DNA from: a virus
Lineage: Duplodnaviria; Caudoviricetes
Length of the DNA: 64,000 nt
Strand: one strand, 5' to 3'
IMG/VR virus record: IMGVR_UViG_3300029305_003192
Of the stretch, positions 11,031 through 40,252 are shown piece by piece (the first letter of the stretch is position 1; the number at the start of each line of letters is the position of its first letter). Under the pieces are notes generated by a model that saw nothing but the letters and a program-made list of their open reading frames with translations, ran no database searches and was not told where the DNA came from. The position numbers were made by a program, and so were the translations under genes.

Positions 11031-11042
11031 AAATATAAGAGA

Positions 11043-18482: not shown

Positions 18483-18488
18483 GTAATT

Positions 18489-18522: not shown

Positions 18523-18528
18523 TTACAC

Positions 18529-18560
18529 CGTAATTTCCGTATATACTGCATATATATCAT
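18529..18560 (+). promoter_or_regulatory. Early-type phage promoter
   Basis: CGTAATTT-N14-TATATATCAT. Confidence 0.7.
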
Positions 18561-18643
18561 AACATTGTACAAGAAGTAGCAAACGGCTATGGATGTACAT
18601 AGTTTAGGGCCACTGATGACGGTGGCAGAAAGGAGGCATCATT

Positions 18644-18991
18644 ATGATGTCCGAAATGTATAATTCTTATAATAAGGTGATCGCAATTATCGACAATGTG
18701 TTCAACACGTTTGTATCCTCTTCCGAAGAGGATAAGTATATTGCTAGTGTTAACCGCGCTAGCTTTACACTTAACGCTCCACAGATCCTTATGGATCTTG
18801 AGAGGATTGGTGCAATGAGTGCCGATGACATCGAAGGTTTCGTGCCGAAGTATGTCGAAAACTTTAGCTCTGCTTATAAGCAGAGCTTTATCGTGAGCAG
18901 TGGTTTCGGGGAAGCTACCGCATCTCGATATTCTCATCAGGCAGCTTCCAGCATGATGGAAATTATTGACAGTTATCTCGCAATGAGATAA
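18644..18991 (+). CDS. Hypothetical accessory protein (115 aa), stand-alone cassette
   Basis: Own promoter, AAGGAGG SD and terminator hairpin with T-tract at about 18999-19029. Confidence 0.75.
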   Translation: MMSEMYNSYNKVIAIIDNVFNTFVSSSEEDKYIASVNRASFTLNAPQILMDLERIGAMSADDIEGFVPKYVENFSSAYKQSFIVSSGFGEATASRYSHQAASSMMEIIDSYLAMR

Positions 18992-19083
18992 CTGTCGAAT
19001 CGGGGTCGCTTCGGTGGCCTCGATTTTTTGCTCAAATATGTCCCTAGACAATTTCATAACCTTGAATGAAAGGAGGATATAAC

Positions 19084-22616: not shown

Positions 22617-23888
22617 ATGCAGGAAACTAATGAAGCACGCGGGCTGACAGAGCCCGTTAATACACAAATGGAGGAGACCGAGACAGCTACCGCTGCTATG
22701 TGTCTCGATGACCCGAAAGATATTCCAACGGTTGAGTTGACTACCACAAATGATAAGCTGGTAATCACTCATGATAATCCGCTGGTTGAAGCGGTTCTCA
22801 GAAAAGCTTATGAGAACGGTATTCCAGTTGAAGTAGTTAAGGATGTCGAAGACGTCGTTAACGAATTCAGCAAGAAGACTAAGATTGAGCTCGTTATGGC
22901 TAAGAGAGAAATCGAAAATTATAATGGTCTCAAGGAACTTGCAGCAGGACTTGCGGAATCAAGTAAGTCGATGTCAGCAACATCCAAGGCACTTACGGAT
23001 TTCATTGAACCGAATTTCAATTTCGATGAAAACGAGAACGAATCCGACGCTGCCGAGAGTATTGAAGAGCCGGAATCTGAACCTGAGGACGAACTTGCTA
23101 ACGAGATTGATGGTATGTATAAGACTCTTGAGAACGATATTGCAATCGCTAATATTGCATACGATGTCGTTTATCAGAAGTATATGGAAGACCATCCAAA
23201 TACCACCGTATATGATGACCTTCTTGAGAAGCTTCTGAAGGATAAGGCAACTCTTGAGTCCGGTAATAATATTAATGCACCAAAGCTCATTGCATGCATC
23301 GATGATGTTATTGCTTGTATGCAGAAGAATGACCTCGAGGCACTCCTCGTACCATTCCATACAAAGACTGATAATCAGAAGAGACTTCGTATTCTTGCGA
23401 AGGAACTTATCAATGTCAAGCGTCCAGTTTACCGTGACCTCGAGACTATCGGTATTACTCAGGAGCATATCGTGAAGTTTATTAACTTCTTTATTACCGA
23501 GGCAAACTTCCGTGAGACATATGCAACGGGACCTATTGGTTTCCCAGATACACGTCTTATTCCAAACATCTGTCTCTTCTTCTTATATCATCTCTGTAAG
23601 ATTATTACTAACTCTCGTAAGAGAGCTACATATGAGACTCTTAAGTATCGTCTCGCATTCATGCATGTCATTGACGTAGTGGATACGTATCCATCCACTA
23701 CCAAGACATTCACTGAGAACAGATTCATTGGTGATGCAACTAATGAGAATGCTGAGCCTACAGAGCTCTCAATTGCTCGTGCAAAGGTATATGATACATT
23801 CGTACCACTTCTTATGAAGTACTTTGGTGCGATGAATGACCAGACATTGGTTAAGTATTCAGTAGCACAGGCAAGAAAGACAAAGTAA
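22617..23888 (+). CDS. Hypothetical protein (423 aa)
   Basis: AGGAGG SD; acidic N-terminal half. Confidence 0.8.
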   Translation: MQETNEARGLTEPVNTQMEETETATAAMCLDDPKDIPTVELTTTNDKLVITHDNPLVEAVLRKAYENGIPVEVVKDVEDVVNEFSKKTKIELVMAKREIENYNGLKELAAGLAESSKSMSATSKALTDFIEPNFNFDENENESDAAESIEEPESEPEDELANEIDGMYKTLENDIAIANIAYDVVYQKYMEDHPNTTVYDDLLEKLLKDKATLESGNNINAPKLIACIDDVIACMQKNDLEALLVPFHTKTDNQKRLRILAKELINVKRPVYRDLETIGITQEHIVKFINFFITEANFRETYATGPIGFPDTRLIPNICLFFLYHLCKIITNSRKRATYETLKYRLAFMHVIDVVDTYPSTTKTFTENRFIGDATNENAEPTELSIARAKVYDTFVPLLMKYFGAMNDQTLVKYSVAQARKTK

Positions 23889-23892
23889 AAAT

Positions 23893-23927
23893 ATTATCCC
23901 ATTACCCTTCAAGGGTAATGGGATAAT
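23893..23927. repeat. Palindrome family member / terminator
   Basis: ATTATCCCATTACCCTT-C-AAGGGTAATGGGATAAT. Confidence 0.8.
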
Positions 23928-23933
23928 TTATGC

Positions 23934-23973
23934 CGTGATTTTAGAGATAAGTGCATATATATTATATTAGTAG
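23934..23973 (+). promoter_or_regulatory. Early-type phage promoter
   Basis: CGTGATTT-N14-TATATATTATATTAGTAG. Confidence 0.7.
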
Positions 23974-23985
23974 CAATAAAGGAAG

Positions 23986-24051
23986 TATCGCTAAGTTATA
24001 GGGCACTTAGCGACGTATAAAATAGCCCTTCATACTGGAGGTAATAGTATG
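23986..24051 (+). promoter_or_regulatory. Structured 5' leader (pseudoknot + SD/ATG hairpin), copy 2
   Basis: Matches 11043-11092 except for one A; CATACT/AGTATG hairpin. Confidence 0.75.
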
Positions 24052-24336
24052 AAAGAATCCGTTGTTACAAGAACCGTAATATTTGTCAATCCAGAAAGAT
24101 TGACATTCGACACATCTATCAAAGATGTGTTGAAAAAGACAGGAAACGCGTTTGTGCAGTTACTTGATAACGAAGATAACGTAGCTGATACGGCGCGTGC
24201 GATTCGAGCAAACCTCGCAGATCATACATCTGCAGGAAAGAGCCCGGTTAATGTTGTGCTTTCCGGATTCGACTACGACCCGGAAATTCTCGAGGCAATC
24301 GAGAAAAATGGTTGTAAGCTTATCTGGGCTTGCTAA
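24049..24336 (+). CDS. Hypothetical accessory protein (95 aa), small alpha/beta fold
   Basis: GGAGG SD, own promoter and terminator, and the same leader as acrIII-1. Confidence 0.75.
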   Translation: MKESVVTRTVIFVNPERLTFDTSIKDVLKKTGNAFVQLLDNEDNVADTARAIRANLADHTSAGKSPVNVVLSGFDYDPEILEAIEKNGCKLIWAC

Positions 24337-24342
24337 ATAATT

Positions 24343-24409
24343 AAACAGCACCGCCAAGTAATCATACTTGGCGGTTTTGGAATTACCTTGGCGGTGCTGT
24401 TTTTTTTTT
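24343..24409. terminator. Terminator with alternative nested hairpins
   Basis: AAACAGCACCGCCAAG...CTTGGCGGTGCTGTTT followed by a T-tract, with a second internal CTTGGCGG copy. Confidence 0.7.
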
Positions 24410-25421
24410 ATACTTCCTTGTAGATATAATGTCTCTGAAGGTGGTCAACTGCGGTATTTGCACGATAGTTAATCTCGAATTGGATATCATTCGGATTTTC
24501 AGGAACTGGGTAATCCGGGATAGGTTCACCATCCTGGTCTACCGCATATACATTCCAGTCCTCAGTATTAGTATTAAACTCGGCGACTAAATCGACATGC
24601 TGGCCTTCATACTTAAGATACTTATCGCCATCATTACCGGCTCTCTTACTGTCATAATCTTCAGAGTACTGCTCGCCGATATCATCCATTGAATCATTAT
24701 CATCTTCATCATAATCTGCACCGGAGAATTCTTCACGTCCTCCAACATCTCCGATGAGGTGCTGGTGACCCATACCGAAGAGCTGCTGCATGATATTGTT
24801 AGTAATAAGAGATTCATCTGTACCACCAACATTCTTATCGAGCTTAGCTTTAAGCTCAATCTTAGTCTTTGCGATATTATTGAGTTCTTTGAGTACACTC
24901 ACTCTTGCAGTATGAAGTGATGTCTTCTGCCCGGCAAGTTCGGCCGTCTTAATAGCAGAACGGTTAAATCCTGTACCGCGGAGATTCTCGAGGTCTTTCT
25001 CGAGCTTAGCACTATCCTTATGCATTTCTGCGAGGATGTTACGAAGCTCCTGCTCATTAGCAGCAAACGCTCTGTCAATCTCGTTTTCACTTTCAGATAC
25101 GGCGTTAGTTCGTGCATATTTACGACCCATACCGATGAGTGCAGACTTGAGTTCAAGATCCTCATCATCTACGTCGATAGTATCAATCAATGCATCGAAG
25201 TCCTCTTCCTGAAGACCTCCATACTTAGCAAGTTTCTTATCAAGGTCATCCAGAAGTAACTTAGGGTCGTCAATGCTGGTATGTGATTCTGAATCGAGAA
25301 ACTTTGGAAGTTTCTTTGATTTTTTATCTTTCTTAGGTGTAACTACTTCGACTTCAGGAGCATCTCCTGAGAGGGATGATGATGCAACGAGTTGTCGAAG
25401 TCCATCCAATGTACTACTCAT
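24408..25421 (-). CDS. Hypothetical protein (coiled-coil, acidic)
   Basis: Start MSSTLDG at 25421 (SD AAGGAGG); late promoter at 25451-25463 (minus). Confidence 0.75.
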   Translation of the reverse strand: MSSTLDGLRQLVASSSLSGDAPEVEVVTPKKDKKSKKLPKFLDSESHTSIDDPKLLLDDLDKKLAKYGGLQEEDFDALIDTIDVDDEDLELKSALIGMGRKYARTNAVSESENEIDRAFAANEQELRNILAEMHKDSAKLEKDLENLRGTGFNRSAIKTAELAGQKTSLHTARVSVLKELNNIAKTKIELKAKLDKNVGGTDESLITNNIMQQLFGMGHQHLIGDVGGREEFSGADYDEDDNDSMDDIGEQYSEDYDSKRAGNDGDKYLKYEGQHVDLVAEFNTNTEDWNVYAVDQDGEPIPDYPVPENPNDIQFEINYRANTAVDHLQRHYIYKEV

Positions 25422-25565: not shown

Positions 25566-26336
25566 ATGATTAGAGTTATTAAGAATGCGTCTGAATTAGA
25601 GACGAATATTCCCGGTATACGCAGCGAGAATGCTAAACGGTATTATTGTGATTATGCCATGGATCCATGGTCATCATCAGAGTTTATGTCCAGTGAAGAA
25701 ATTCAGATTGGAGATAATGAATATCAGATACGTTTTATATCTGAGATAGAATTCACGAATTACGGAATCGATATAAACGATATAACCGAGATATATACTG
25801 AATTGGTGTTGTTGAAGAGGGCTAAGACCAGGGGTCAGGATCACTTATATTTAGTGGTACGAGATAAGCAAACAGACATACCCATTGGTGTAGTACTGCT
25901 CAACGTATTTTTATCACAGGAGGATGAGGATGGTATACCTGATTTCGACGCATTGATTGATGTCAGTATCGGTACTTGCTGTGAAGCATATGTCGTACGC
26001 GAAATAGACAATATTCGCACATTAATGGGTAAAGGTATGATAAACGAGGCAGCAGTGGTAGTGGCATATAATATGGTATTAGCATTGAAAGAACTGCATG
26101 TTAAACTGCGACTTGCTGATAATGATAAAGAATTCGATATTAATTATGAGCCGACAATCGACGACCTTACGGAATTCGTATCCATATATCAGGGATTCCT
26201 TAAGTCTGAACTTAAGAGGTTGGGTATCATTACGGCTCCCACCCAATATGAGAAGGACATCATAAATCTTGTCGATAATATCATGAATGCAGTCAATGAT
26301 TCAGAATATGTAAAATGGAGGAAGAAACATCCATGA
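25566..26336 (+). CDS. Hypothetical protein
   Basis: TATATATCAT motif at 25496; SD AAGGAG; ATGA overlap with the polymerase gene. Confidence 0.75.
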   Translation: MIRVIKNASELETNIPGIRSENAKRYYCDYAMDPWSSSEFMSSEEIQIGDNEYQIRFISEIEFTNYGIDINDITEIYTELVLLKRAKTRGQDHLYLVVRDKQTDIPIGVVLLNVFLSQEDEDGIPDFDALIDVSIGTCCEAYVVREIDNIRTLMGKGMINEAAVVVAYNMVLALKELHVKLRLADNDKEFDINYEPTIDDLTEFVSIYQGFLKSELKRLGIITAPTQYEKDIINLVDNIMNAVNDSEYVKWRKKHP

Positions 26337-28213
26337 GATTTTTAGGAAATGAAGCTGAAGGGCGTCACGTGATGCCCTTATCAATCATTTATGATAACCC
26401 ACGAGAGGCATCAGATATGTTGATGATTCTTTATAAGGACATCGATACCGGTGAGAAGTTCGTCAAGAATATCGAGAATCCTGAAATTGACATCTATATT
26501 GTCAAGGAGCAATATAGAAACCAGAGCCCAGCTGAAAATCCGCTTAATATGGACGGTTCATATCGTCCCGACTTCTATATGAAAGACCAGTGCGATGTGG
26601 TTAGGGTTAAGTATCGTAAGCGAAAGTATGCGGCTGCGAAAATACTCGGTATATCACCGGAAGATGTTGATGCTTCACCATATGTCGGCGGAACCGATAT
26701 GGATATACGTCATTGGTACTTTGTAGAATTCTTACATGAATACAGTAATGATTTGCCAAAGCCTATTAGCGTAGGATACTACGATATCGAAGCCGATACC
26801 AGAGGTTATGGTACTAATGAATTCGGTGATAATTATGGTAAATTCCCAATTACTGCAATCACTTATATATCAGACGTTCGAAACCAGGTATATGTATTCG
26901 TCCTCAATTGTCCGGAGTTCGGAAGAATGGATGAGATTATAAATAATACCGAAGGTTTGCGTCGAGAGATGCACGAAGAGTTTGATGAGAAGTTCGGTAC
27001 CATGGAGTATAACATCGTTATATTCGATAAAGAAATCGAAATGATAAACGCGTTTTGGGCATTGGTAAAGGCTGTTGAAGACGACTTCACCCTCGCGTGG
27101 AACGCACCATTCGATATCGGTAACCTGACATATCGACCAGCCGAACTGGGATATGACCCAGTATCAATTATTCATGACCCACGATTTGCTCGTAAGGTCG
27201 TGATATTCAATGAAGACAGAGCGACATTCGTTGCACATAAGAAGAGACATAAGATAACCTATACATTACCTACTATCCTGGACGACCACATGCGTATATA
27301 TTCCGGTGTCAGATCAGCTAGAGGTAAGCTTCCTAGTACAGCACTCGATAAAGTTGCTAAACGTGAGAAGATAGGTGGAAAGAAGACATATGAGGGTGAC
27401 ATCAACCAGTTCATGCTCACTAACTTCTGGGATTATATTATCTACAACGTTAACGACGTTCATTTGATGAGAGCTATCAATAATAAGGTCAATGATACTG
27501 GAGACATTTATTCACGTATGCTTAACTCAGGCGTGTCGAATGATGAGGTATTCGTATCCACTACTATCTGGGCACAGTATATCAAGAATGACCTCGAATC
27601 AAAACGTGGTAGATTCTTGGCTAATAATAAGAATAAATTCCTGGCAAAGACCCAAGAAATTATCGAGTATGGCTTCGACAGTGATGCTGTTGATGAAGAT
27701 GATGGAGACGATGAGGATGAATCCGATGAATGTCTCCAGGAGGTGCTCGGGGCTATTGCAGACCAGCAGAACCTTATCGATGAGAAGACGGGTAAGAAGA
27801 AGAAATTCGCAGGTGCTATAGTACTCGATACCCGTCGTACCAGATATACAGGTACTAAGATTAATGGTATGGAGTGCAACTTCGTACATCGACATGCCAT
27901 AGACCAGGATATCACATCCGAGTATCCTACAGCAATCACTATCAGTAACCAGTCAAATGATACATTCGTTGGAAAGATTTATGTCGACGATGCCGATGAA
28001 ATCAAACTCCCGTTCTATGAGCAATATAGCTTCTTGGATAATAAAGACGCTAGCGAATATAAGTGCAACAAGGCTGCACTTATGCTCGAGACAGCTATCC
28101 AGGGCGACTATATGATGGTAGGCGAGATAGCATTAGGATTACCTAAGTTGGCTGACTTAGAGAAGATGGTTATAAACATGGCCGGAGATAAACTTACGAA
28201 GGGAGATAAATAA
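26333..28213 (+). CDS. polB: Family B DNA polymerase, exonuclease + motif A half of a split enzyme
   Basis: ExoI YYDIEAD, ExoII WNAPFD, ExoIII YNVND, KFAGAIV and motif A DQDITSEYP. Confidence 0.88.
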   Translation: MRFLGNEAEGRHVMPLSIIYDNPREASDMLMILYKDIDTGEKFVKNIENPEIDIYIVKEQYRNQSPAENPLNMDGSYRPDFYMKDQCDVVRVKYRKRKYAAAKILGISPEDVDASPYVGGTDMDIRHWYFVEFLHEYSNDLPKPISVGYYDIEADTRGYGTNEFGDNYGKFPITAITYISDVRNQVYVFVLNCPEFGRMDEIINNTEGLRREMHEEFDEKFGTMEYNIVIFDKEIEMINAFWALVKAVEDDFTLAWNAPFDIGNLTYRPAELGYDPVSIIHDPRFARKVVIFNEDRATFVAHKKRHKITYTLPTILDDHMRIYSGVRSARGKLPSTALDKVAKREKIGGKKTYEGDINQFMLTNFWDYIIYNVNDVHLMRAINNKVNDTGDIYSRMLNSGVSNDEVFVSTTIWAQYIKNDLESKRGRFLANNKNKFLAKTQEIIEYGFDSDAVDEDDGDDEDESDECLQEVLGAIADQQNLIDEKTGKKKKFAGAIVLDTRRTRYTGTKINGMECNFVHRHAIDQDITSEYPTAITISNQSNDTFVGKIYVDDADEIKLPFYEQYSFLDNKDASEYKCNKAALMLETAIQGDYMMVGEIALGLPKLADLEKMVINMAGDKLTKGDK

Positions 28214-28976: not shown

Positions 28977-29231
28977 ATGGCAAATATTTATATATGTACA
29001 GACCGCCAGCCTGTGAGTGAAGAATTCTCTAAGAGCGTCGCTGGCGTATCTCTTTTACTCAAAAGGAGTAAAGTTGATGGTAAGCTCGCTGTTATCAGCG
29101 CAGCGAGCGGTGAGATCCTTTGGGTGACGACGGCCATCCAGCATGAGGAACGAGACGTACCTGGTACTGATCTCGTTATCGTGACGGCGAATTCCAAATA
29201 TACATTTAGAAAGATTGGTGAAACAGTATAA
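28977..29231 (+). CDS. Small hypothetical protein (84 aa)
   Basis: AGGAGG SD; beta-rich with a TANSKY motif; terminator at about 29246-29274. Confidence 0.7.
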   Translation: MANIYICTDRQPVSEEFSKSVAGVSLLLKRSKVDGKLAVISAASGEILWVTTAIQHEERDVPGTDLVIVTANSKYTFRKIGETV

Positions 29232-29272
29232 TCTCACCAATCTCCTCACCCGCCAATTGGTGGGTGATTTTT

Positions 29273-29301
29273 TTGCTATAAATCGATACAAAGAGTATAA
29301 T
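29273..29301 (+). promoter_or_regulatory. sigmaA/sigma70-type promoter
   Basis: TTGCTA-N17-TATAAT. Confidence 0.55.
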
Positions 29302-29307
29302 GATATC

Positions 29308-29977
29308 ACTATGGATACCGTAACCTATATTAGTATGTGTGGTACATGTACATGGTTATAATCCGAACGATACCATTATATCAAAACTTCCAACGGGTAT
29401 AGTGGTAGTGTATACATCTTATTCAGAGATATCAGATGTATACTTACGTTTTAACATATGATTGGTAGTACGAGGTTCGTTACTACCATTACAATATCGA
29501 TATCTCATCGTCATATGTTAGTAGTGTTTGGCTGCCAAACTATAAAGCCTATCATTCTTATTTTCTTAAAGAACACAATTTGTCATCTCTGTCCCTGACT
29601 AACTAAGTTCATCCTCTACTCCGGCATATTCAGATGCCATTGAGACTCGATACGTTGATGCCGGTTAGTATATGCTCGCATGCAGTGATTATATCATACG
29701 AACACTATTCGGTGATAGCTATCATATAAGACTCCAATGAGCTTCGTAATGAGTAGATTGACGAGACTGGATTTAATTCTAGTAGCGTATCGAAAGTTAT
29801 GCGGTTATAGATGAGCATTGATAGTTAAGCTGCTTTGGCTAGTAGTGCGATTATACACAGATATGGAGTATAAAATATCGCTATCATTTTATCCTCTCAT
29901 TAGTGAGTAGAGTTGAGCTTCTACGGATGGGTTAGAGTTATAATACCAGGTATACCATTAATGGTATACCTGGTATT
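29308..29977 (+). ncRNA. Putative large ornate non-coding RNA (~640 nt)
   Basis: No ORF >=60 aa starts or lies within it. Many 6-12 bp stems with G-U pairs on the plus strand, an 8-bp pseudoknot and a long-range closing stem. Bounded by a promoter and a 36-bp palindrome. Confidence 0.65.
29942..29977. terminator. Perfect 36-bp palindrome / terminator
   Basis: AATACCAGGTATACCATT|AATGGTATACCTGGTATT. Confidence 0.75.
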
Positions 29978-30061
29978 TGTCCCCGACTTAGCTTAGAATA
30001 GCGAAAAACAGCCATATAACCTATATAACCAATTTCAATAAGAAAGAGGTGGACTATAAGT

Positions 30062-33000
30062 ATGGCTTCTAATAGAAGTAAAAGCAAAGTATTACAGAAT
30101 GCCGAGAAGGCATTTAAGTACTCAGCAGTACCGGCTATTACGAGTAAAGTACCGTATATGACTGGTACTGCACAGAGTGCTATATCAGTCGCGAAGGACC
30201 TTCGCGACTGGACAATCAGAAATAACCCGTTTAGAGCAGTGAATGGTAACAAAGACCCATTGATTAGACAGATCGCCACTGCAACCGCAAATGCTGTTAA
30301 ATCGGCAAAATTGGATCTTAAGTCTGGGGACTTGACATTTAGGAATCTAAATAAGGCTGTTAGAGATTTCGTAGGCGAAGATTCATTGTTGGACGGCTTT
30401 GATAATCTGGACATCGATTTCGGTTCCGACCTCGGGGACTCATTATTTTCGAATTCGGGACAGGACGACCAGACCTCTGATATTACCACCGCATCTGCAA
30501 TGATGGCAGTGGGCGACACGTTGTCACGAACTCAGGCGGTTACCACAGAGGCGATGATTGGTGCTGTAGAACATTCGACAGAAAGAATCACTAAAACCCA
30601 AATGGTTATGACTGATACTGCAGTAACACGACTAATATCCAGTAACATGACTATAGCCGCCAGGACTTCGACTCAATTAGGTACGATCTCCGAAGACATA
30701 AAAGTTGTGAATAAAAATCTCTCGCTACTGGTTGAGCAGTCGAACAGTTTCTCTTCATTTATCAACCAGTCACAGAGATATATGGAGCATACCGAGCAGA
30801 CATTGAACGATATTAAAGCATTATTGGAGGCCAGTCATTCTCAGGGTAAGAATGACGGATATGGTGGTAGTTATAATGACGGATTTATGTCTGGACACTT
30901 CGACATCAAAAAATATATCCACCATATATTCAATAATACATCCTCTGGTATCATTGCATCTCAGGTAATCGGTACCACTATGAAAGCTCTTAAGATGGAA
31001 CTGCCCTCATTTATTGATGAGATGAATGCTTTCTCCATCGGAGATTTGAATCCTCTCAAGATGGGTATTGAGAAGCTTATCCCTGCAATTGGAAGAATTG
31101 CTGATTTGGATAAAACTTTCGAGCGGTCGATTAAGATGTTCATGGCCAGACTTGCAGAAGGAGAATACGGAGGATTCCTCAATGGCTTAGGTGTAGAGGG
31201 ATTCGGCATGAGAGAGCGTAACCGTGTTATTTACGACTCGAGATATTACGAAAAAGGTAATATGCAGTGGAACGGTATGGCTCAGCGCGCTTTGATGGAG
31301 GTTATCCCAGGATACTTATCTAGTATGGAAGGCTATCTCAAACAGATAGCTGAGAATACATATAAAGGTAAAGATAGGTATGCACTTAACACATCGTCGC
31401 TCCGTCACTTCGATTATGATCTTGGGCAATTTGCAACTTTGAGTGATATACGCGAAAGAACTAAGAAAGAATTAACATCATCTCTTCAGAGTTCATATGA
31501 TAATTTCGTTGAGATGACAGAAAAAATCACCAATGGCTCGGACGAGCTGAACCAGGAGCTCACCAATTATCTGCGAAAGATTAATAGCTCAGAGAACGAT
31601 AGTAAGATTTCACGTAAAGAATGGATGAACGAATTTAAGGCTATCGTTGGAAAACATCGTAAAGATGGTATTACTGACGACCAGATAATGAAGGCATATG
31701 ATGCATTGGTATGGGCTCGAGAGCAGTCCCTAGACGAAAGGAACCGAATTCGTACGGCAGCTGCACGAAGAGAATCCAGTGCATTTTATCTTGGCGATGA
31801 GCTCAATACCATGACCCCAGACCTGGTATATAAGGGACTGAAGGAGATTAAGCAGGATCGATATAATTCGCTATCTGAAAATGATAAGAAAGAGGCCGAC
31901 CGTCAGAAACGAAACGAAGAACGGAGGAAGGGCTTCTTCGAAAAAACAGTAGCCAAATTGGGATTAACTGATGATGCTAAAGCAATAAAGGAAATGTTTA
32001 GCCATGGTGGTCCTATTAATAGAGGAGTGGACTTCGTATCTGATAAGCTTCAGGGAGTCTTACTGAATCTTATATACGGTGGCCTCAAGTCCTATGATGT
32101 CGGAAGTCAGAATATCCCTAATGACCAGGTAGCTAATATTCACAAGGGTGAAATGATTATCCCTAAGGATGTCGCCGACCAGATTCGTGCCGGTAATTTT
32201 GACAATGCGCAGGTTAAGGAATGGCTTAATATCACAGCAGGTTCTGTTGAGAATAGCACATCCGTACTATCGTCCATTCAGAGCATGTTCGTCGGTAACT
32301 CTAAGACCAAGTCTAAGACTCGTAAAGCTATGGGTGCTATGGTCGAATACGCCGATGACTATTATAAGGTAGCTATCGATGCTGAAGCTATCAAGGATGG
32401 CGACCTCAGAGGTATCTGGGTATCCATGCTCGAAAACATGGCTAACCAGACAGCTATTCTCGCACATAATGCCGAAAGAGATGCAGGATTCGATGATAAG
32501 GACGGTCGTAGTGACCTTTCTAAGAGAATTCTCGGTGAGAAGGATAAGAATGGCCTCTATAAAGGCACTATGTTTAGTCAATATGCTAACATAGGTCTTG
32601 ACTTTAAGAATGCCATCAGACATGCCATGTATGGCGAAGAGTATATTACGTCAGAAGGCGTTAAGGTCGCTAAATCGGATGATACAGTTCTCTCTACTTT
32701 ATCTAAGGGTATGAAGAAAGCTGGTGATACAGCTCTTTCATATATCTTTGGAGAAGATTATAAAAATACCAAACAGTTCAAGGCAGTATCAAAAGGCTAT
32801 AGTGAACTCAAGGCAGGTATTACTGGTAAAGCATCAGACGGAGTTCAGCTGACTCCGGATGAAGAAAAGGCTGTCGAAGAAGCACTTCAGCAGACAGCTG
32901 ATAAGGGACTTGAACTTAATAAGAAACTCATTGGTCACGTTAAGGGTGGCCTGTTAGGTGCAATTACCGTAGGTGGTATTGGTCTTATGGGTGGCGGTGG

Positions 33001-36000
33001 TGTAGTGCCAATGCTTCTCGGAGCAGGTGGACCTATTGGTGGTGCAATTATCGGTGCGGGTCTTTCTATTCTCACTAGAAACGAATCCTTCATGGATAAG
33101 ATGTTCGGTGAGATGAAGGATGGTGAACGTGTCGGTGGCGTAATCTCCAAGGAGATGCAGGAAAGATGGAAAGACCTCGGTAGTAAGCTCCTTGGTCCGG
33201 CAGTACTTGGTGCAGCTGGTTCATTTATCTTCCCTAAACTTACTAGAGGTATACTTGGACCGGTTGGTTCATTTATGCTTGGTACTGGACCTATCGCAGG
33301 CGCTGCACTTGGTATAGGTGCATCTCTCATCATGAAGAGCCAGCCAGTGCAGGATTTGCTCTACGGTGAAGAGGGTAAAGGTGGTAATACCGGATTAGTT
33401 GGTAGTGTTAAGAACGCTGCAAAGGATTTCTGGAATAAGAATAAGCAGCATGCGGGTGCTATGGGACTTGGAGGTATCGGTGGTGCTCTCCTAGGTCTCA
33501 AGGGTGCTGGTGCATTAGGACTTGGTGGATTCGGTTTAGTCGGTAGCATTGTGGGCATGTCTATCCTCGGTGCATCATTCGGCCTTAAAGCCACATCTGA
33601 TAAGTTTAAAGACTTCCTCTTTGGTTCCAGAAAGTTTAAGAGAGATAAGAATGGAAATCTCGTTCCAGACGGACGTGATGGTGATGGCCTTATCGGTAAG
33701 ATTTCTCGTAAGTTCATTACTAGTGTCATGACACCTGCTCGAGTATTCGCACGTTCCATTTCACGTAACTTCACAGAGTGGATTCGATATGATGTTGCAC
33801 ATCAGCTCAAGTCTGCATTTGAACCATTTACCCTTGCTATCAAGGGTGGCGTCCAGGGTATTGCTGACGGCATGCATGCCGTTACCGATAAACTCATGGA
33901 CCTCGCTAAGAAAATCACTAACCCGATTAAGAAAATCGTCGGTGGGCTTCTTAAATTTGCTGGTAAGACAGTAATGGGCGGTCTTAAGACAGGTGCATCT
34001 ATTGCCGGTGGTGTAATATCTGCACCTCTTAAAGTATTAGGACACTTTGGTCGTAGATTCTCCAAGAAATACGATCCAACAGTTGCTGCTAATAATAAGA
34101 AATTCCGTTTTGGATATACCGATGCGAGTGGTAAAAAGCATCGAGGATTCTGGAACCCTCTTCAGAGGCTTGCTGATGCAAGGGATGCGTTCCTCGATAG
34201 CGATGGGGGCTTCTTTGACGCTCTTGCTGCGGGTGGTCATATGCTCAACCCATTCACTGCATATGCTGATGCTAAATATCAGTACTCCAAGGATACGGGA
34301 TATAATAATGCTGCATTCTTAGGAGGCTTCTTCGGTGCAGCTGGTCAGAAGCATCGACAGATTAAGAAGGCTAATAGACGTAAAGATAAAATGGAGAGCA
34401 GGATTGCCGATTGGACAGCAGAGTGGGCAAAGAAGGACAACTGGAACGATAAGGTTATCCTCAATAAGAAGGAACTCAATGCACGTAATAGCCGTCTCAG
34501 AAAGATAATGGGTAAGGACTACGATAAAGTCCTTGATAGATTCGGTAATAAGAGCGGTTCTCTTACCAGTGAAGAGATGATTCAGTTCATGTACGACCCA
34601 TTTGGTAAGAAGAAAAGCGAAAAGGATGCTCAGGCTAATACAGCTAAAAAGGCAAATACATTCCTTCAGGATATCAAGCATATCGCATACGAAATACTCC
34701 AGTTCGTCTCTGGTGGCAAACCAAAAGGCGCCCCTTTATCAGGACCAGTTGCTAAGATTGGTAATGCGTTGGCTCCTAAAGGTGGTTCCAAGAGAAAACA
34801 GTCCAGAAATAAGGGCGCTGTCGACAGTAGCATGTACGACTTCATGAAGCAAGCAAAAAGTAGAGGCTTCGGCAGTATTAGTGCAATTGCCAGTGCTACT
34901 GGTATAGATGTAAACGACCTCAAAAATTTCCTTGCTGGAAATCGTGACGCGATTAGTGGTAAAGCCAGACGATCGATGTTTAAACAGATGGGTTATATCG
35001 ACACATCAACGTTCGGTGGTAAAGTAAAGAAAGCATTTACAACTCAGCATGCACTTGCTAAATATATAACCGACGGTCAATATCGTAAATCGGTAAATCA
35101 AAAACTTGAAAGTAAATCCAACGTGTTTAAATATGCATTGAATGCTGGATACCGTAAGAGTTTACATCAGCAGTATAATGTTACGAGTAGTAAGAGTCTC
35201 CTCGATTGCGTAATAGATGCTGGTTATTTCTATGGCATTAAGCAGGATAAGAAGGTCGATTATAGAAAATTATCAGCTGATACAGGAATCGACCCCGACA
35301 AACTGAAGAACCTCCTTGAGGGTCGAGAAGATGACTTGAAGGATGATGAGAGGACTATATTATATGATAAGGTAGGGTACGTCGGTGATAAGTTCCAGGC
35401 CGGTAAACTTATCAAGAACATGATAGGAACTAAGGTTAAGAATAAAGTCAATTCGATAAAAACCACCCTATATAATAAGACACAGCCATTACGTAATGCC
35501 GCTAAGAAAGTCCAGAGTGGAATCGGCGTAATTAAAGGCAAGATCGCTCCTCTTCAAGATAAGGGTAAGGAACTGTTTAAACAAGCATCAGAAGCTGCGA
35601 AGTTTAAGCTCGACAATAAGATGACCAGTAAACAGAAAGAATTCATGCATAAATATCTCACACCATATGAGATAAAGATATTCAAGCAACTGTCTATATC
35701 TGAGCGTAATAACATAATGAGATTGTGGGCTACTGATGATGGTCGCTCTGCAATAGCAGCATTGCAGCAACATGGCAAGGAGCTTAAGAAAAAGACAGAT
35801 GCCAATCGTAAGAAGCTCGGTCGTAATGTAGCAATGACTGATGAAGAAAAAGCTACATTTGAATGGCTCAAGGTCAACGCTAAGAAATCTAAATTAGAGC
35901 CAGATGTACAGAAGACATGTCTTAAGGTATACCGTAAGATGACATCTACCGAAAGGGCAGAAATTGAGGTATATCGTAAAAACAAAGACGTTGTGGGAGC

Positions 36001-39000
36001 ATTCACATATCTTAAAGACCATGCAGGAAAGATTAAATCGTTTGCTGAACGAGTTAAAGGCGCTGCGGGCGCTCTAAAGGCAGGTGCGTCCACGATAGCT
36101 GGTAAAGCCGCTGCGGGCGCATCCTCTATATTCGGTGCATTATTTGGAACAACAGGAGGTCTCAAATCCCTCGCTGGTATAGCGATAGGTGCAGGCGTCA
36201 TGTTCCTCTTTAATAAATTCCCAGGAATTATGGAGAGTATCAAGACTATTATTGGTAATATCAAGGATTGGTTCATGGAAACTGCATGGCCATTTATTAC
36301 TGATAAGATAGTTCCGGCTGCCAAGAAGATCTTTGAAGGAATCGGAACTGTAGTAGAGAAAATTTTCAACTTCATTGCCAACCCGGAAGAAGAGGGTGCT
36401 GCACTTTCTTCAAACTGGTTTACAGGAATGGATAAATCCGCAGAACAGTTGAAGGCTGAATCTGATACAGCTGCGAAGTATGGTTTATCAACTACAGAAG
36501 AAATGCTTAATTATGCGACTGGAGACCATGGAATATGGACTAGTGACATTGGTGATGGTGGTCTTGCAGAAATCGTTGGTAAAAAGGCGGGTTCTAAGTA
36601 TACAGCTAAGGATGGACTTATTGCAGCATATGTAGTTATCGGTAATGAGTACATGTTATACAATAACCCATTTATAGCACCGACAGTCGAGCAGTTGTCA
36701 GCATTTATCGAAGATCCTAAAATCTTAAAAGCCGTTAAGAAGTTCTATAAAGAAATTGCAACACAACGTGGAATTAAACCGAAGAAGTATGATGATACAT
36801 CGGCTTCCGATAGAAAAGCTGCTCTTCAGCAAGCTGTACAGTATCTGGAAGGTAAGTATGGTGGTCATAGAAACGTTCAAATCAACATGAATAACGCCGC
36901 TGGTATTACTATGGAACAGGCTGCTGCTAATGCAGCCGCAGAAGCATCAGGTAGTGTCGGCTCAGGCCACTTCATGCAGACTGACCCAAGATGGGCAAAT
37001 GCTAGATATGCAAATGCTGGTCGTGGTAATTTCTCCACTATGGGTAATGGTGGATGTGGACCTACTGCACTTGCTAATGCGGCAATGAGCCAGGGTGTAT
37101 CCACTAATCCTATGGCAGTAGCGCGTCTCTCCAGAAACGGCGGATATGCAGTAGGTGGGGGTACATCTGCTGGTCTATTCACTAACGGTGCTCGAAGACT
37201 TGGTCTTCAGTCTACAGCAATTGGAGCAGGCTCAATTAAGCGAGCACTTAGTAATGGTAACAGTGTCGTATTTGCTGGAAAGGGTAATGGCCTCTATACT
37301 AGAGCTGGACATATTATGTCTGCTCGTGGTATCGATAGACACGGAAATGTTATCGTTGATGACCCAATGAGACGCAATTCGGTAAGCGTCCCACTATCGA
37401 CTCTTGGTAGAGGTATGACTCATGCATGGTCTATTGGACGTGGCGGTGAGACATATACTGATAACAAGGGTAATGTTTATGAGAAGATAACCAGTTTTGA
37501 CCAGCTTAGTGCTGCAGCTAAGAAGAAAGATCTTACTAACTACTCCGACCAGGACCTCGGTATGCTCATGGCTAAATGCCAGAATGGCGAAGCCGATATT
37601 AATATAGCAGAATTTTACTTCCTTACATCACAACGAGAGATCAATAGAAAGAATGGTCTTGCAGACATGAGCTCTATGGACTATCATATCTCACTGCGTG
37701 GTGACGATAGTATGTTATATAATAACGTGCTTATGTACAACCAGACTAACGAGAAATGGAAGGATAAATTCCTCGTATACACTAATGACACATCAACTAT
37801 CGGTAATGCAGGATGTGTAGTTACTGCATTCGGCTCATTATTGGCCAACTTAACAGGACTCAACTATAGACCTGACTTTATGACAAATGCCATTGCCGGA
37901 AAGACTCGTACTGGCAATAGCCTGATTACTATTCTGGGAAATAGTAGATCCCCAAGTATTTCCAATGCAACGCCTCAAAGATTTCTCATTAATGGGCATA
38001 CGCATGGCCAGGCAACTAACAGTGAGGCAATTTATCCGAACTGGTATGAGCCACATGAAGGACCTTTTATGGGTAGTATGGATTGGTCTACTGGAACGAT
38101 GACGTATCATAGGAATAATGATGAGCTCAGGTTCCTCGATACTATCTCGTCTGGACCATTCGTTATCTACGGTGGTTCGATTTATAATAAGGATATGGAT
38201 AAAGTTTCTACTTATGGAACTGAACCAGGCACATATGCATCATCAATCTCTGGTTATACTCATATGCATCCGTTCTATCGCCCATCTGATGGAAAGATGT
38301 ATACTAACCACGCATACTTGGTAGTACCTAAAACATTTGGTGGAGCTTCATCCGTAGCTCAGCAGGAATATTATCTGTATGACCCAGGAAGTGGCCAGCT
38401 TGAAAATCAGGGACGTGCATTATCTTACAGTGCATTATTCTCACCACATGGTGGTGTACAGTCAGTATTCGGATTTTCCGGTTTGGCTAGTACTCCATTT
38501 GGCGGAGTTCTCGGTAAAGAACCTGCCGTGGAAGACCTCAATTGGTGGCAAAGTATGTATAATGCTGACGATCTTGCGGAACTTTATAGGACATCGTCCG
38601 AGCATACTCGTAGGAAGTATCAGTATGAAAATTCATGGACTGGCACAGATACATCAACCGATGAGTCCTCAGACGACAGTCTTCTGACAAAAATTATGAA
38701 TGCTCTCAGTGGTCTTGGTGATATTGCGATGGGACTACTGGGTAAAATATTTGGTGGTAAGGGAGACCTTCCAACCATGACCGATTATGCCAACCAGTCA
38801 GTTTATAACAACGGTGGAAGCGGAAGCGGTGGTAGTGGTGGATCCGGTTACGTTAGCAACGACGGTTCAATCTACTATAAGGGTGAGAAGGTCAGCAGTC
38901 GTGCTCTCACGATGGACCTCTCTAAATACTCGGACTATGACATTGCTATGTTACAGCAGCGAATTATGAAGGGTACCGAAGACGGTCTTACTATGAATGA

Positions 39001-40252
39001 TTTCTATTATCTGACAGATAAGAGAAATAATCCCCATAAGCGTGTATCTAAGTCGATTGAAGCTATAACAAGCTCTATCGCATCATTATACCCTAATGGT
39101 GCGGATGTTACACCATATACATCATTACCAGGTTGGGCAACCGCCCTCAGCGATCATTACAACTACAATAAACTCGGAACTATATCTACTGCTCCAATTC
39201 AGTCGACTAAGTTCACAGCAAACGATATAAATGCTATCATGAATGCGATGCTCCGAATCTCATCTGACCGTGAGGGTGGATATTTCGGAATAGCTAATTT
39301 CAATAGTGCTTATGCGGACTCTGATGGATATCCCGCATTTGGTATCAGTGGATTCAACGGTCATTATGGAGGGGCGCAGGAAGTTCTTGGAAGAATGGTT
39401 GCATCCGGAGAACTGTCTGAAGAAGACAGGGCTATCGCACTGGAGCTCATTGATGAAGTGGGCAGAACGTATACAGGAAACAACCCATTCAACAAAAATA
39501 AACTCGATACACTGATTCGTAAATATTCGAATGTCAATAAGTATGCACAGGACGGTTATGCATACCAGCTCATGCAGAACTCAGCACGTCACGTGTTTAG
39601 TGCATATGATAACGGAACACTTCGTAGCGTTGAAGAGATGATTATGCTTAATCAGCTCTCACCTTACGGACCAGCACATATTCCAGCAATTCTTGGTTTA
39701 CCAGGTGCTGGAAGTTGGGCAGAAACTACTGCTCCTAATAACCTCAAGACACTTAAGTTTAGTAGTGATCCACTTACAAACCTCGCATACACAATGAACG
39801 ATTATTATACACGTAATACTTCAGCTTGGACTAAGTATTCTTATATGAAGAATGAGCTGAAGGAAGCGTATAAGAATCTCGGAGGAACGGAAGCTCTTGG
39901 TTTCGGCGGTGGTATCGCAGACTCGCTCAATTCCGGTTCTTATGATATCGTAGACACACCTGTCGCTATCGGTAGAACACCTAGAGTTGAAGTTGACTCT
40001 GCACCAGTTACTACAAGACTCGACGTAATTATCAACTATCTCAGACAGATTGCCAATACTGCTAGACAAAACCGAGCAGAAACGGCGGCAACTAATTTGG
40101 ATATCGGACACGGAGCTATTGTTGAAAAGCGTAGCATGTCCAGTTCTGGTTCCAACAATATGCCGGCAACACCGGTATATACAGACATTAAGAACAGTGA
40201 TAGAATGAAAGCGATTCATGATAGAATAGCCAGAAGTCCTAGACCTGTATAA
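30062..40252 (+). CDS. Giant tape-measure / tail-associated lytic protein (3396 aa) with two C39-like peptidase domains
   Basis: TMP motif YDVG...IHKGEMIIP; Gly-rich hydrophobic segments; C39-like QxDxRW...GCGPT...GH...DP and NQ...GCVVT...NH...YDP; possible muramidase-like region near the C-terminus; late promoter at 30007. Confidence 0.8.
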   Translation: MASNRSKSKVLQNAEKAFKYSAVPAITSKVPYMTGTAQSAISVAKDLRDWTIRNNPFRAVNGNKDPLIRQIATATANAVKSAKLDLKSGDLTFRNLNKAVRDFVGEDSLLDGFDNLDIDFGSDLGDSLFSNSGQDDQTSDITTASAMMAVGDTLSRTQAVTTEAMIGAVEHSTERITKTQMVMTDTAVTRLISSNMTIAARTSTQLGTISEDIKVVNKNLSLLVEQSNSFSSFINQSQRYMEHTEQTLNDIKALLEASHSQGKNDGYGGSYNDGFMSGHFDIKKYIHHIFNNTSSGIIASQVIGTTMKALKMELPSFIDEMNAFSIGDLNPLKMGIEKLIPAIGRIADLDKTFERSIKMFMARLAEGEYGGFLNGLGVEGFGMRERNRVIYDSRYYEKGNMQWNGMAQRALMEVIPGYLSSMEGYLKQIAENTYKGKDRYALNTSSLRHFDYDLGQFATLSDIRERTKKELTSSLQSSYDNFVEMTEKITNGSDELNQELTNYLRKINSSENDSKISRKEWMNEFKAIVGKHRKDGITDDQIMKAYDALVWAREQSLDERNRIRTAAARRESSAFYLGDELNTMTPDLVYKGLKEIKQDRYNSLSENDKKEADRQKRNEERRKGFFEKTVAKLGLTDDAKAIKEMFSHGGPINRGVDFVSDKLQGVLLNLIYGGLKSYDVGSQNIPNDQVANIHKGEMIIPKDVADQIRAGNFDNAQVKEWLNITAGSVENSTSVLSSIQSMFVGNSKTKSKTRKAMGAMVEYADDYYKVAIDAEAIKDGDLRGIWVSMLENMANQTAILAHNAERDAGFDDKDGRSDLSKRILGEKDKNGLYKGTMFSQYANIGLDFKNAIRHAMYGEEYITSEGVKVAKSDDTVLSTLSKGMKKAGDTALSYIFGEDYKNTKQFKAVSKGYSELKAGITGKASDGVQLTPDEEKAVEEALQQTADKGLELNKKLIGHVKGGLLGAITVGGIGLMGGGGVVPMLLGAGGPIGGAIIGAGLSILTRNESFMDKMFGEMKDGERVGGVISKEMQERWKDLGSKLLGPAVLGAAGSFIFPKLTRGILGPVGSFMLGTGPIAGAALGIGASLIMKSQPVQDLLYGEEGKGGNTGLVGSVKNAAKDFWNKNKQHAGAMGLGGIGGALLGLKGAGALGLGGFGLVGSIVGMSILGASFGLKATSDKFKDFLFGSRKFKRDKNGNLVPDGRDGDGLIGKISRKFITSVMTPARVFARSISRNFTEWIRYDVAHQLKSAFEPFTLAIKGGVQGIADGMHAVTDKLMDLAKKITNPIKKIVGGLLKFAGKTVMGGLKTGASIAGGVISAPLKVLGHFGRRFSKKYDPTVAANNKKFRFGYTDASGKKHRGFWNPLQRLADARDAFLDSDGGFFDALAAGGHMLNPFTAYADAKYQYSKDTGYNNAAFLGGFFGAAGQKHRQIKKANRRKDKMESRIADWTAEWAKKDNWNDKVILNKKELNARNSRLRKIMGKDYDKVLDRFGNKSGSLTSEEMIQFMYDPFGKKKSEKDAQANTAKKANTFLQDIKHIAYEILQFVSGGKPKGAPLSGPVAKIGNALAPKGGSKRKQSRNKGAVDSSMYDFMKQAKSRGFGSISAIASATGIDVNDLKNFLAGNRDAISGKARRSMFKQMGYIDTSTFGGKVKKAFTTQHALAKYITDGQYRKSVNQKLESKSNVFKYALNAGYRKSLHQQYNVTSSKSLLDCVIDAGYFYGIKQDKKVDYRKLSADTGIDPDKLKNLLEGREDDLKDDERTILYDKVGYVGDKFQAGKLIKNMIGTKVKNKVNSIKTTLYNKTQPLRNAAKKVQSGIGVIKGKIAPLQDKGKELFKQASEAAKFKLDNKMTSKQKEFMHKYLTPYEIKIFKQLSISERNNIMRLWATDDGRSAIAALQQHGKELKKKTDANRKKLGRNVAMTDEEKATFEWLKVNAKKSKLEPDVQKTCLKVYRKMTSTERAEIEVYRKNKDVVGAFTYLKDHAGKIKSFAERVKGAAGALKAGASTIAGKAAAGASSIFGALFGTTGGLKSLAGIAIGAGVMFLFNKFPGIMESIKTIIGNIKDWFMETAWPFITDKIVPAAKKIFEGIGTVVEKIFNFIANPEEEGAALSSNWFTGMDKSAEQLKAESDTAAKYGLSTTEEMLNYATGDHGIWTSDIGDGGLAEIVGKKAGSKYTAKDGLIAAYVVIGNEYMLYNNPFIAPTVEQLSAFIEDPKILKAVKKFYKEIATQRGIKPKKYDDTSASDRKAALQQAVQYLEGKYGGHRNVQINMNNAAGITMEQAAANAAAEASGSVGSGHFMQTDPRWANARYANAGRGNFSTMGNGGCGPTALANAAMSQGVSTNPMAVARLSRNGGYAVGGGTSAGLFTNGARRLGLQSTAIGAGSIKRALSNGNSVVFAGKGNGLYTRAGHIMSARGIDRHGNVIVDDPMRRNSVSVPLSTLGRGMTHAWSIGRGGETYTDNKGNVYEKITSFDQLSAAAKKKDLTNYSDQDLGMLMAKCQNGEADINIAEFYFLTSQREINRKNGLADMSSMDYHISLRGDDSMLYNNVLMYNQTNEKWKDKFLVYTNDTSTIGNAGCVVTAFGSLLANLTGLNYRPDFMTNAIAGKTRTGNSLITILGNSRSPSISNATPQRFLINGHTHGQATNSEAIYPNWYEPHEGPFMGSMDWSTGTMTYHRNNDELRFLDTISSGPFVIYGGSIYNKDMDKVSTYGTEPGTYASSISGYTHMHPFYRPSDGKMYTNHAYLVVPKTFGGASSVAQQEYYLYDPGSGQLENQGRALSYSALFSPHGGVQSVFGFSGLASTPFGGVLGKEPAVEDLNWWQSMYNADDLAELYRTSSEHTRRKYQYENSWTGTDTSTDESSDDSLLTKIMNALSGLGDIAMGLLGKIFGGKGDLPTMTDYANQSVYNNGGSGSGGSGGSGYVSNDGSIYYKGEKVSSRALTMDLSKYSDYDIAMLQQRIMKGTEDGLTMNDFYYLTDKRNNPHKRVSKSIEAITSSIASLYPNGADVTPYTSLPGWATALSDHYNYNKLGTISTAPIQSTKFTANDINAIMNAMLRISSDREGGYFGIANFNSAYADSDGYPAFGISGFNGHYGGAQEVLGRMVASGELSEEDRAIALELIDEVGRTYTGNNPFNKNKLDTLIRKYSNVNKYAQDGYAYQLMQNSARHVFSAYDNGTLRSVEEMIMLNQLSPYGPAHIPAILGLPGAGSWAETTAPNNLKTLKFSSDPLTNLAYTMNDYYTRNTSAWTKYSYMKNELKEAYKNLGGTEALGFGGGIADSLNSGSYDIVDTPVAIGRTPRVEVDSAPVTTRLDVIINYLRQIANTARQNRAETAATNLDIGHGAIVEKRSMSSSGSNNMPATPVYTDIKNSDRMKAIHDRIARSPRPV

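Follow-up and report, generated by a model that had tools for sequence, protein, structure and literature searches.

Why would a gene-dense jumbo phage retain, at one fixed site, more than 600 nt of selected, folded, non-coding sequence, despite protein divergence to ~28% identity among its relatives? The question is raised by a gap in the viral record IMGVR_UViG_3300029305_003192, of which a stretch of 64,000 nt was analysed (hereafter the window; positions are those of this stretch unless a related locus is named). An earlier note on this DNA had proposed that the gap, just upstream of a tape-measure gene, encodes a large and ornately folded RNA. We find that the region is non-coding and under purifying selection, that pairing on the plus strand is preserved, and that the layout and a 5′ core are conserved. 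With moderate confidence, and on the strength of comparative sequence analysis, we read the gap as a separate gene for a structured plus-strand non-coding RNA of ~670 nt, probably trans-acting and belonging to an uncatalogued family. The predicted RNA (hereafter the unit), be it one molecule or two, would occupy 29308..29981.

The gap itself covers 29232-30061, between an open reading frame (ORF) of 84 aa and one of 3396 aa, and its G+C content is only slightly low. At 830 nt it is the largest in the window, the next-largest gaps measuring 327 nt. Each of the six frames over 29200-30100 holds 15-28 stops, and the longest ORFs inside the gap are 48 and 46 aa. Thus the earlier description of the region as the largest non-coding gap, free of ORFs, holds. 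TAA, TAG and TGA are all used in every frame, so that no single stop reassignment opens a frame in the gap, and an alternative genetic code was therefore rejected. Moreover, a six-frame check and comparison with relatives revealed no conserved small ORF, protein-like remnant or conserved frame in the unit. One candidate small protein, from an ATG-initiated ORF common to position 29458 of the window and position 5389 of the related locus L006, was rejected; it lacks a Shine-Dalgarno sequence, its frame shifts between two indels, and it is absent from another related locus, L007.

Twelve homologues of the giant 3396-aa protein, from 72% down to 27% identical over the first 700 residues, were traced to contigs. 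The relatives make up five lineages from ENA and Logan assemblies and appear, from their sample names, to come from the ruminant gut. A single layout recurs in the window, L006, L007 and the more distant L009-L012: a terminator at the upstream end, then ~600-690 non-coding nt, a strong hairpin or terminator, the motif AACA-N6-TA, a ribosome-binding site (RBS) and then the giant gene. Length and layout are kept in this way across lineages whose giant proteins share only ~28% identity. Close relatives (L001-L004 and L013) are 95% identical to the window over the gap. In L006, whose coding DNA is ~70% identical, all that remains of the gap sequence is 29424-29526 (77%) and the promoter/RBS stretch; in L007 sequence-level conservation is confined to the promoter/RBS stretch, and BLAST found nothing shared between L009-L012 and the window gap. 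The genes further upstream differ: the window and L006 have a polymerase cluster there, L007 has a 535-aa gene and L009-L012 have a dUTPase cluster. The immediately upstream proteins are unrelated between clades and carry no Pfam domains, and a conserved RNA-binding neighbour was rejected on these grounds. Elsewhere, no match to the unit turned up when 50,697 phage records were searched with blastn, and the 4 matches of an IMG/VR pattern scan were chance ones, all in unrelated coding DNA; nor did protein-guided scans bring up relatives in IMG/VR, JGI metagenomes or GTDB genomes.

The first line of evidence for function is the rate of change. Divergence was measured between the window and L001, with the four-fold sites of neighbouring genes as reference. 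Over the whole unit 33/679 sites differ (4.9%), with 10/243 (4.1%) in the 5′ domain and 18/316 (5.7%) in the 3′ domain, as against 34/224 four-fold sites in the polymerase gene (15.2%), 42/304 in the portal gene (13.8%) and 88/681 in the pooled neighbours (12.9%). Against the polymerase gene, Fisher's test gives p 2.3e-6 (unit) and 3.2e-4 (3′ domain), and when the unit is set against the pooled neighbours p is 1.8e-7. The unit thus evolves ~3x slower than the four-fold sites of neighbouring genes, a comparison to be read with caution given that the four-fold divergence of RusA is just 5.6%. The most conserved segment of all is 29921-30061, which holds the terminator, late promoter and RBS (0.7-2.1% divergence). 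In L013 the unit is 4.6% diverged, and the four-fold sites of the adjacent tape-measure gene are 45% diverged over the first 70 codons and 72% over the rest.

The substitutions are also of a telling kind. In helices with a pair probability of >=0.85, 10 of the 11 changes keep the plus-strand pair and one breaks it. The pair-keeping changes turn A into G facing U, or C into U facing G, and on the minus strand they would produce C-A mismatches. The pair 29677/29866, its partners 190 nt apart, is C-G in the window, U-G in L001 and U-A in L013, a two-step compensatory change, and changes at 29609, 29615, 29663 and 29664 likewise keep pairing. The helices backed by substitutions are 29605-21/29905-20, 29662-65/29877-80 and 29671-77/29866-72.

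Folding energies point to the same strand. Relative to shuffles, the plus strand was more stable than the minus strand in 11/11 domain tests from 7 lineages, with z ranging over lineages and domains from -1.6 to -8.9 on the plus strand and from -0.2 to -2.5 on the minus strand. In the window the whole unit, palindrome included, gives z -4.7 (plus) and -5.6 (minus), and the two domains without the palindrome give -3.9 and -2.2 on the plus strand vs -2.3 and -0.8 on the minus strand. Corrected for GC, the unit is the fourth most stable when set against 92 other 679-nt segments of the same DNA (z about -2). Taken together, wobble-compatible substitutions, one compensatory pair and the uniform outcome of the domain tests support the claim of the earlier note that this is a plus-strand RNA. 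As a separate observation, the 679-nt segments 10865-11543, 18334-19012 and 23766-24444 are more stable for their GC than the unit, with residuals of -69, -54 and -55 kcal/mol.

In the 5′ domain the prediction resolves into a series of hairpins. The first is an 8-bp hairpin with a GGU triloop closed by U-A (29333..29351), which recurs with other stem sequences in L006 (5269-89) and L007 (5373-93). It is followed by a 12-bp hairpin with a 13-nt loop at 29371..29407 (29371-82/29396-407, 2 G-U), for which hairpins at the same place in L006 and L007 were identified by eye, and by the 10-bp hairpin S1 at 29410..29443 (29410-19/29434-43), whose loop holds the 5′ pseudoknot strand GAGAUAUC at 29426-33. 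An outer stem, S2, at 29452..29520 (29452-61/29511-20) then encloses both the hairpin S3 (29463-72/29478-88), with the pentaloop AGGUU at 29473-77 closed by G-C, and the 3′ pseudoknot strand GAUAUCUC at 29499-506. All 5′ stems described in the earlier note proved exact, S3 having been given there as 29463-70/29481-88, and so did its 8-bp pseudoknot.

Comparison of lineages shows this architecture maintained while much of its sequence is replaced. The window, L006 and L007 hold the same order of elements (GGU-triloop hairpin, S1, S2, and S3 with G-AGGUU-C), and every pair is canonical. The S1 helix reads GUAUACAUCU/AGAUGUAUAC in the window, AUACUAUUAAC/GUUGAUAGUAU in L006 and GCUGUGC/GCAUAGC in L007, and in close relatives two A>G changes keep its pairs as G-U. 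S2 is UAACAUAUGA/UCAUAUGUUA in both the window and L006, and GUAAGAC/GUCUUAU in L007. L007 therefore forms the triloop hairpin, S1, S2 and S3 from other sequences throughout, with the G-AGGUU-C loop kept. The pseudoknot strands are GAGAUAUC/GAUAUCUC in the window, GAGAUAU/AUAUCUC in L006 and L013, and ACGAGAU/AUCUCGU in L007, and the predicted pairing of loop with downstream strand amounts to 8, 7 and 7 bp in the window, L006 and L007 (p 0.004-0.02 each vs shuffles). It is extended on opposite sides in different lineages (ACG/CGU in L007, AUC/GAU in the window), as expected of a real contact. The complementarity of loop and strand is thus kept while the sequences change, and such a predicted contact may form within or between molecules. 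A covariance model of 29405-29526 built for the window clade (R1) scores 108 bits on L006.

Two further ideas about this domain were rejected. One had the AGGUU loop pair with AACCU in the 5′ end of the tape-measure mRNA, through only 5 bp that are not conserved in L006 or L007; in the other, a T-loop or tRNA-like reading of GAGGUUCG, the loop positions misfit in L007. A 10-nt string, TAACCTATAT, occurs both near the 5′ end of the unit (29321-29330) and at the predicted start of the tape-measure mRNA (30017-30026); it is not conserved in L006 or L007.

A U-rich linker at 29546..29604 joins the two domains, with U-rich stretches at the same place in L006 (U10), L009, L010 and L011; it could be a site of partial termination or processing. 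The 3′ domain, 29605..29920, is predicted to be closed by a long-range helix consisting of 29605-11/29914-20 plus 29614-21/29905-12. The stem 29606-21/29905-19 of the earlier note therefore exists, but it is bulged. Inside it, the minimum free energy (MFE) fold contains helices 29662-65/29877-80 and 29671-77/29866-72, both backed by variation. The nested stems proposed previously (29622-27/29658-63, 29713-19/29880-86 and 29731-36/29864-69) are perfect complements, but they compete with the MFE helices that variation favours. The 3′ domain of L007 (5546-5885), with an MFE of -116.6 vs -82.0 in shuffles (z -8.9), is the most extreme of the set and may be the best candidate for structure probing.

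Beyond this domain lies the 36-nt palindrome noted earlier, which is indeed perfect (29942..29977; 29942-59/29960-77). It folds as a 16-bp stem with a 4-nt loop followed by UUUGU, and is the probable 3′ terminator of the unit. In L001 the loop varies and the stem is kept, and hairpins of unrelated sequence take the place of the palindrome in L006 (11-bp stem and UUUU) and in L007. With only UUUGU behind its 16-bp stem the hairpin of the window was not called by the terminator scan; the terminal hairpin of the distant clade, a 15-bp covarying stem followed by U6-7, is clearly an intrinsic terminator.

That distant clade (L009-L012) carries at the same site a predicted RNA that is different but also covarying. 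In its 5′ domain 19 of the 34 predicted pairs show compensatory change, and the closing helix spans 165 nt. Both clades have a GGU-triloop hairpin close to the 5′ end, a U-rich linker and a 3′ domain of 320-450 nt that evolves fast but folds stably; they also share an enrichment of UGGUA, seen 27 times vs 7.2 expected over seven units. GGA is not enriched, and a sponge of the CsrA type was rejected for that reason.

The signals on either side of the unit bear on whether it is transcribed by itself. On the upstream side, and absent from the description in the earlier note, an intrinsic terminator of the upstream operon is predicted at 29246..29274 on the plus strand (9-bp G+C-rich stem at 29246-67, then T7). 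Matching terminators lie at 5274-5303 in L007 and 5187-5214 in L009, and one was found by eye in L006. On the downstream side the giant tape-measure-like virion protein gene (30062..40252, plus strand, 3396 aa), which is the constant downstream neighbour of the unit, has the RBS AAAGAGGTGG at 30043..30052 and a predicted late promoter of the type known from Bacillus phage AR9, AACA-GCCATA-TA (AACAGCCATATA), at 30007..30018 with a predicted start at 30018. In AR9, late promoters belong to the non-virion RNA polymerase and read AACA-(6N)-T(A/G), the last base being the start site, and the early promoters of the virion RNA polymerase read AAATATATATTAT-(6N)-G (PMC5312081). The AACA-N6-TA before the giant gene is kept in L006, L007 and L009-L012. 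Since the giant gene thus has its own predicted late promoter 3′ of the 29942-77 hairpin, the gap is taken as a separate unit. At L008 5198-6000, where the giant protein is 36% identical, minus-strand genes and a hairpin run lie upstream, and GACA-N6-TA replaces AACA-N6-TA.

A motif scan of the window places AACA-N6-TA 29-66 nt upstream of nine genes, the giant gene included (5972-6661(-), 10047-10928(-), 14430, 16418, 18045, 21500, 30062, 40341 and 43383). At least six of these are structural or packaging genes, namely those for the major head protein, two virion structural proteins, the portal, a virion protein and the giant protein. An early-like motif, TATATATCAT-N6-G, precedes the genes at 11108, 24049, 25548, 56615(-) and 49260(-), which are likely early genes. 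The presence of late and early motifs suggests phage-encoded RNA polymerases like those of AR9, none of which was located in the window. For the unit itself the candidate promoter is TTGCTA-17-TATAAT (29273..29301, plus strand), a 10/12 match with a predicted start near 29308. It overlaps GTATAATGAT, an imperfect copy of the early-type TATATATCAT motif of the phage; the unit reads GTATAATGAT-ATCACT-A, one deletion and one mismatch away from the TATATATCAT-6N-G of the window, and the counterpart in the distant clade is ATTATATTAATTA-6N-A. In AR9 one deviation at a conserved position can abolish an early promoter (PMC5312081). The string CACTATRGA, just 3′ of the candidate promoter, is common to the window and L006. 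Within the core, its most conserved string, AACAUAUGAUUG at 29453-29464, also fits the late-promoter pattern as AACA-N6-TG; identical in L006 and absent in L007, it could be an internal late promoter of a shorter RNA or a chance occurrence, 0.3-0.5 such sites being expected per 680 nt by our own estimate.

The giant protein also places the phage. Its only named relatives are in the Bacillus jumbo phages AR9 and PBS1, at 26% identity over 230 aa (E 8e-6). There the counterpart bears the annotation tape measure, and a virion protein gene and RusA come after it, in the same order as in the window; this weak similarity and the common gene order support the earlier naming of the downstream gene as a tape-measure gene. 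The protein cluster to which it belongs is found on contigs of up to 239,651 bp, and the source is an uncultured ~240-kb jumbo phage, distant kin of AR9 and PBS1. The neighbours of the unit in the window are genes of the DNA polymerase cluster upstream and the tape-measure gene downstream; over the whole 64 kb ARAGORN detected neither tRNA nor tmRNA genes. The family B DNA polymerase is seemingly split into a 632-aa protein with the exonuclease domain (26315-28213, plus strand) and a 686-aa protein with the polymerase domain (2832-4892, minus strand), ~21 kb apart on opposite strands. The tape-measure-like gene, for its part, has been swapped as a cassette between near-identical phages (window 30062-40252, L001 6001-16158, L013 667-10353). 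At four-fold sites this gene is 60-72% diverged and the virion protein gene that follows it 46-51%, as against 6-15% for polymerase, RusA and portal; the RNA unit is ~5% diverged, and the cassette break falls within the first ~215 nt of the tape-measure gene.

We therefore envisage the following arrangement. The unit would start just past the terminator of the upstream operon, near 29308, and stop at the 29942-77 hairpin, and the giant tape-measure-like gene would then start from its own AR9-type late promoter at 30007-18. The ~240-nt 5′ domain, with its GGU-triloop hairpin, its loop pairing into the next stem-loop and its G-AGGUU-C pentaloop, would be the functional core, presenting fixed loops to a partner that may be a protein, another RNA or possibly another copy of itself through loop-to-strand pairing. 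The ~320-nt 3′ domain, fast-evolving in sequence yet stably folded, would serve as scaffold and stabiliser. Such an RNA would work in trans and not as the leader of the downstream gene. Action in trans is preferred because a probable terminator and a predicted promoter of its own separate the giant gene from the unit, and because 600 nt of selected structure exceeds the needs of insulation. In all this, transcription, the RNA ends, the promoter class, the action in trans and any partner are inferred.

Several observations weigh against this interpretation. In stability the unit ranks only fourth of 93 segments, and over its whole length the minus strand folds well too; folding energy is for these reasons only moderate evidence, and it is the comparative evidence that carries the case. 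That comparison draws on ~9 sequences in 5 lineages, 3 of them near-identical, too few for formal covariation statistics such as R-scape. With filters off, the best match of model R1 in the L007 gap is the full-length element at 5424-5532, at 10.8 bits (E 0.037 for 751 nt), a score no better than noise in other gaps, e.g. 13.7 bits in L010; the L007 core match thus depends on hand alignment. Model R1 found nothing convincing in L009 or L010, nor did model R2, from the distant clade, find anything convincing in the window, its best match there being on the wrong strand and over the palindrome. Each model misses the other clade, and homology of the two RNAs is to that extent unproven. The 3′ domain has no detectable sequence conservation between lineages beyond the close relatives, and L008 has only ~335 nt upstream of the giant gene and no such unit. 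The TTGCTA-N17-TATAAT reported in the earlier note is present at 29273-29301, but its role as a promoter is not borne out by the relatives, as no sigma-70-like site is conserved in L006, L007 or L009, nor by numbers, such sites being no commoner than in shuffles (4 found vs 5.0 expected). The low divergence of the unit could come partly from mosaic ancestry, as the RusA value illustrates. Lastly, a role in cis would also be consistent with the unit's constant association with the tape-measure gene.

Such a role, which we consider unlikely, would make the unit a long structured leader or insulator of the tape-measure gene. Its terminal hairpin would block early or read-through transcription and so restrict expression of the 10-kb gene to the late promoter, or a regulated read-through could provide another way of expressing it. 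The unit always lies directly upstream of the giant gene whatever is found further upstream, and the best conserved segment of all is the terminator, late promoter and RBS at 29921-30061. Moreover, AR9 continuously expresses those genes that possess an early promoter as well as a late one (PMC5312081). A terminator alone would insulate, yet 600-690 nt of folded and selected RNA have been retained, and AR9 manages with a gap of 240 nt and L008 with ~335 nt. The conserved 5′ core is also ~500 nt away from the gene, and the distant-clade unit closes with a strong U6 terminator just before the promoter of the giant gene, which argues for separate transcripts.

Equally, the gap may hold two RNAs, a ~240-nt 5′ RNA that ends at the U-rich linker and a separate, fast-evolving 3′ RNA or element. 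We doubt this, while noting that only the 5′ domain is conserved in sequence across lineages, that a U-rich linker follows it in most of them (in L006 as a weak hairpin and U10), and that a weak promoter-like site is present at 29528-55. The linker of the window has no terminator-like hairpin with a U run, the terminator scan called nothing inside the units of L006, L007 and the window, and the 3′ domain is itself under selection with pair-preserving changes.

A function of the DNA itself, be it as a replication origin (perhaps transcript-primed like those of ColE1 or T4), a packaging site or a recombination anchor for the tape-measure gene, strikes us as very improbable. A ColE1 RNA II-type primer likewise consists of a promoter plus a structured transcript, and in the clade of the window the unit does adjoin DNA polymerase genes, a link that is lost in L007 and the distant clade. 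The neighbouring tape-measure gene has been swapped between near-identical phages (four-fold divergence of 60-72% vs 10-15%), so a conserved flank could guide recombination. The unit has no iterons or repeat arrays, and there is no GC/AT skew inflection at 29.5 kb, the skew following gene orientation and turning at ~11 and 46 kb; an origin was rejected on these two grounds. Nor would a DNA function predict strand-asymmetric substitutions that keep plus-strand G-U pairs. These substitutions, together with purifying selection, fit both a DNA-level function and junk poorly. That the gap is a decayed gene or functionless spacer, as its freedom from ORFs, the unconserved 3′ half and the lack of a known RNA family match might suggest, is hardly credible for a region that evolves ~3x slower than synonymous sites, has covarying helices, keeps its length and layout at ~28% protein identity and shows no protein-like remnant or frame.

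Returning to a separate trans-acting RNA, we asked whether its family is already known. At the gathering threshold Rfam gave no match in the window or six related loci. A permissive search (E up to 10 or 5) with the units of the window, L007 and L009 found no ROOL and noise only, the sub-threshold hits on terminator hairpins being to tsr26, snoRNAs, microRNAs and, on the wrong strand, the fluoride aptamer. Models for GOLLD (RF01998), OLE, group I/II introns, RNase P, tmRNA, 6S and phi29 pRNA likewise matched neither the window nor its relatives. Elements of this kind are familiar from ROOL, GOLLD and the long non-coding RNAs of Staphylococcus phage K. What Rfam does not catalogue, and what had no match in the phage genomes searched, is this particular family, with its core motif and its fixed position ahead of the tape-measure gene.

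Large, intricately folded RNAs of bacteria and phages are rare, and the classes ROOL, GOLLD, OLE and raiA have raised questions about machines made of RNA only. It is tempting, if rather speculative, to take the unit as founding a new class of large ornate RNAs that only the AR9-like jumbo phages of bacteria from gut or rumen would carry, and whose conserved loops would mediate higher-order interactions. The RNA of the distant clade would then be its analogue at the same site, the family being defined by position and function and not by sequence. Members might self-assemble through the GAGAUAUC/GAUAUCUC contact, as in ROOL, GOLLD or pRNA multimers, or might capture a cellular RNA or protein early in infection, for example by pairing of recurrent UGGU(A) loops with the 3′ ACCA ends of tRNAs. 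If expressed, the RNA would offer a compact new system, with a ~120-nt pseudoknotted core for probing the roles of such RNAs when phages with RNA polymerases of their own infect a cell. For annotation the gain is a set of AR9-type late promoter motifs in an uncultured phage clade, and a tape-measure gene with its own predicted late promoter.

How does the unit compare with known systems? AR9 shares with the window the gene order tape measure, virion protein, RusA and the AACA-N6-TA before the tape-measure gene; its own gap before that gene is 240 nt, with one hairpin and a promoter and no large structured unit. The unit is thus an addition peculiar to the uncultured clade described here. The loop-loop complementarity of phi29-like pRNA links molecules into a ring on the portal, and the unit is similar in that one of its loops complements a distant strand in each of three lineages. 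pRNA is ~120-174 nt long and confined to phi29-like podoviruses with protein-primed replication, and unlike it the unit region drew not even a weak score from the Rfam pRNA model. ROOL (RF03087) and GOLLD (RF01998) are often found in phages or prophages, frequently beside tRNA genes. Staphylococcus phage K, a large lytic phage, encodes the intergenic RNAs lnc001 and lnc002, of 635 and 1154 nt, one of them with high read counts (PMC9241854). A search of the phage collection showed no sequence similarity of the unit to them. Those RNAs were found by RNA-seq, have no structure model drawn from comparison and lie near tRNA genes, whereas the present unit is known from comparative sequence and precedes a tape-measure gene. 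ROOL, which first came to light in data from cow rumen, averages 581 nt and contains pseudoknots and multistem junctions (PMC5737381), and both ROOL and GOLLD are reported to self-assemble (PMC12286853). The likeness to these two that the earlier note had drawn extends to size and setting, but not to a model match or to adjoining tRNA genes. Unlike them, the unit is conserved between lineages only in its 5′ third; like them, it is phage-borne, non-coding, of the same size class and equipped with a conserved pseudoknot.

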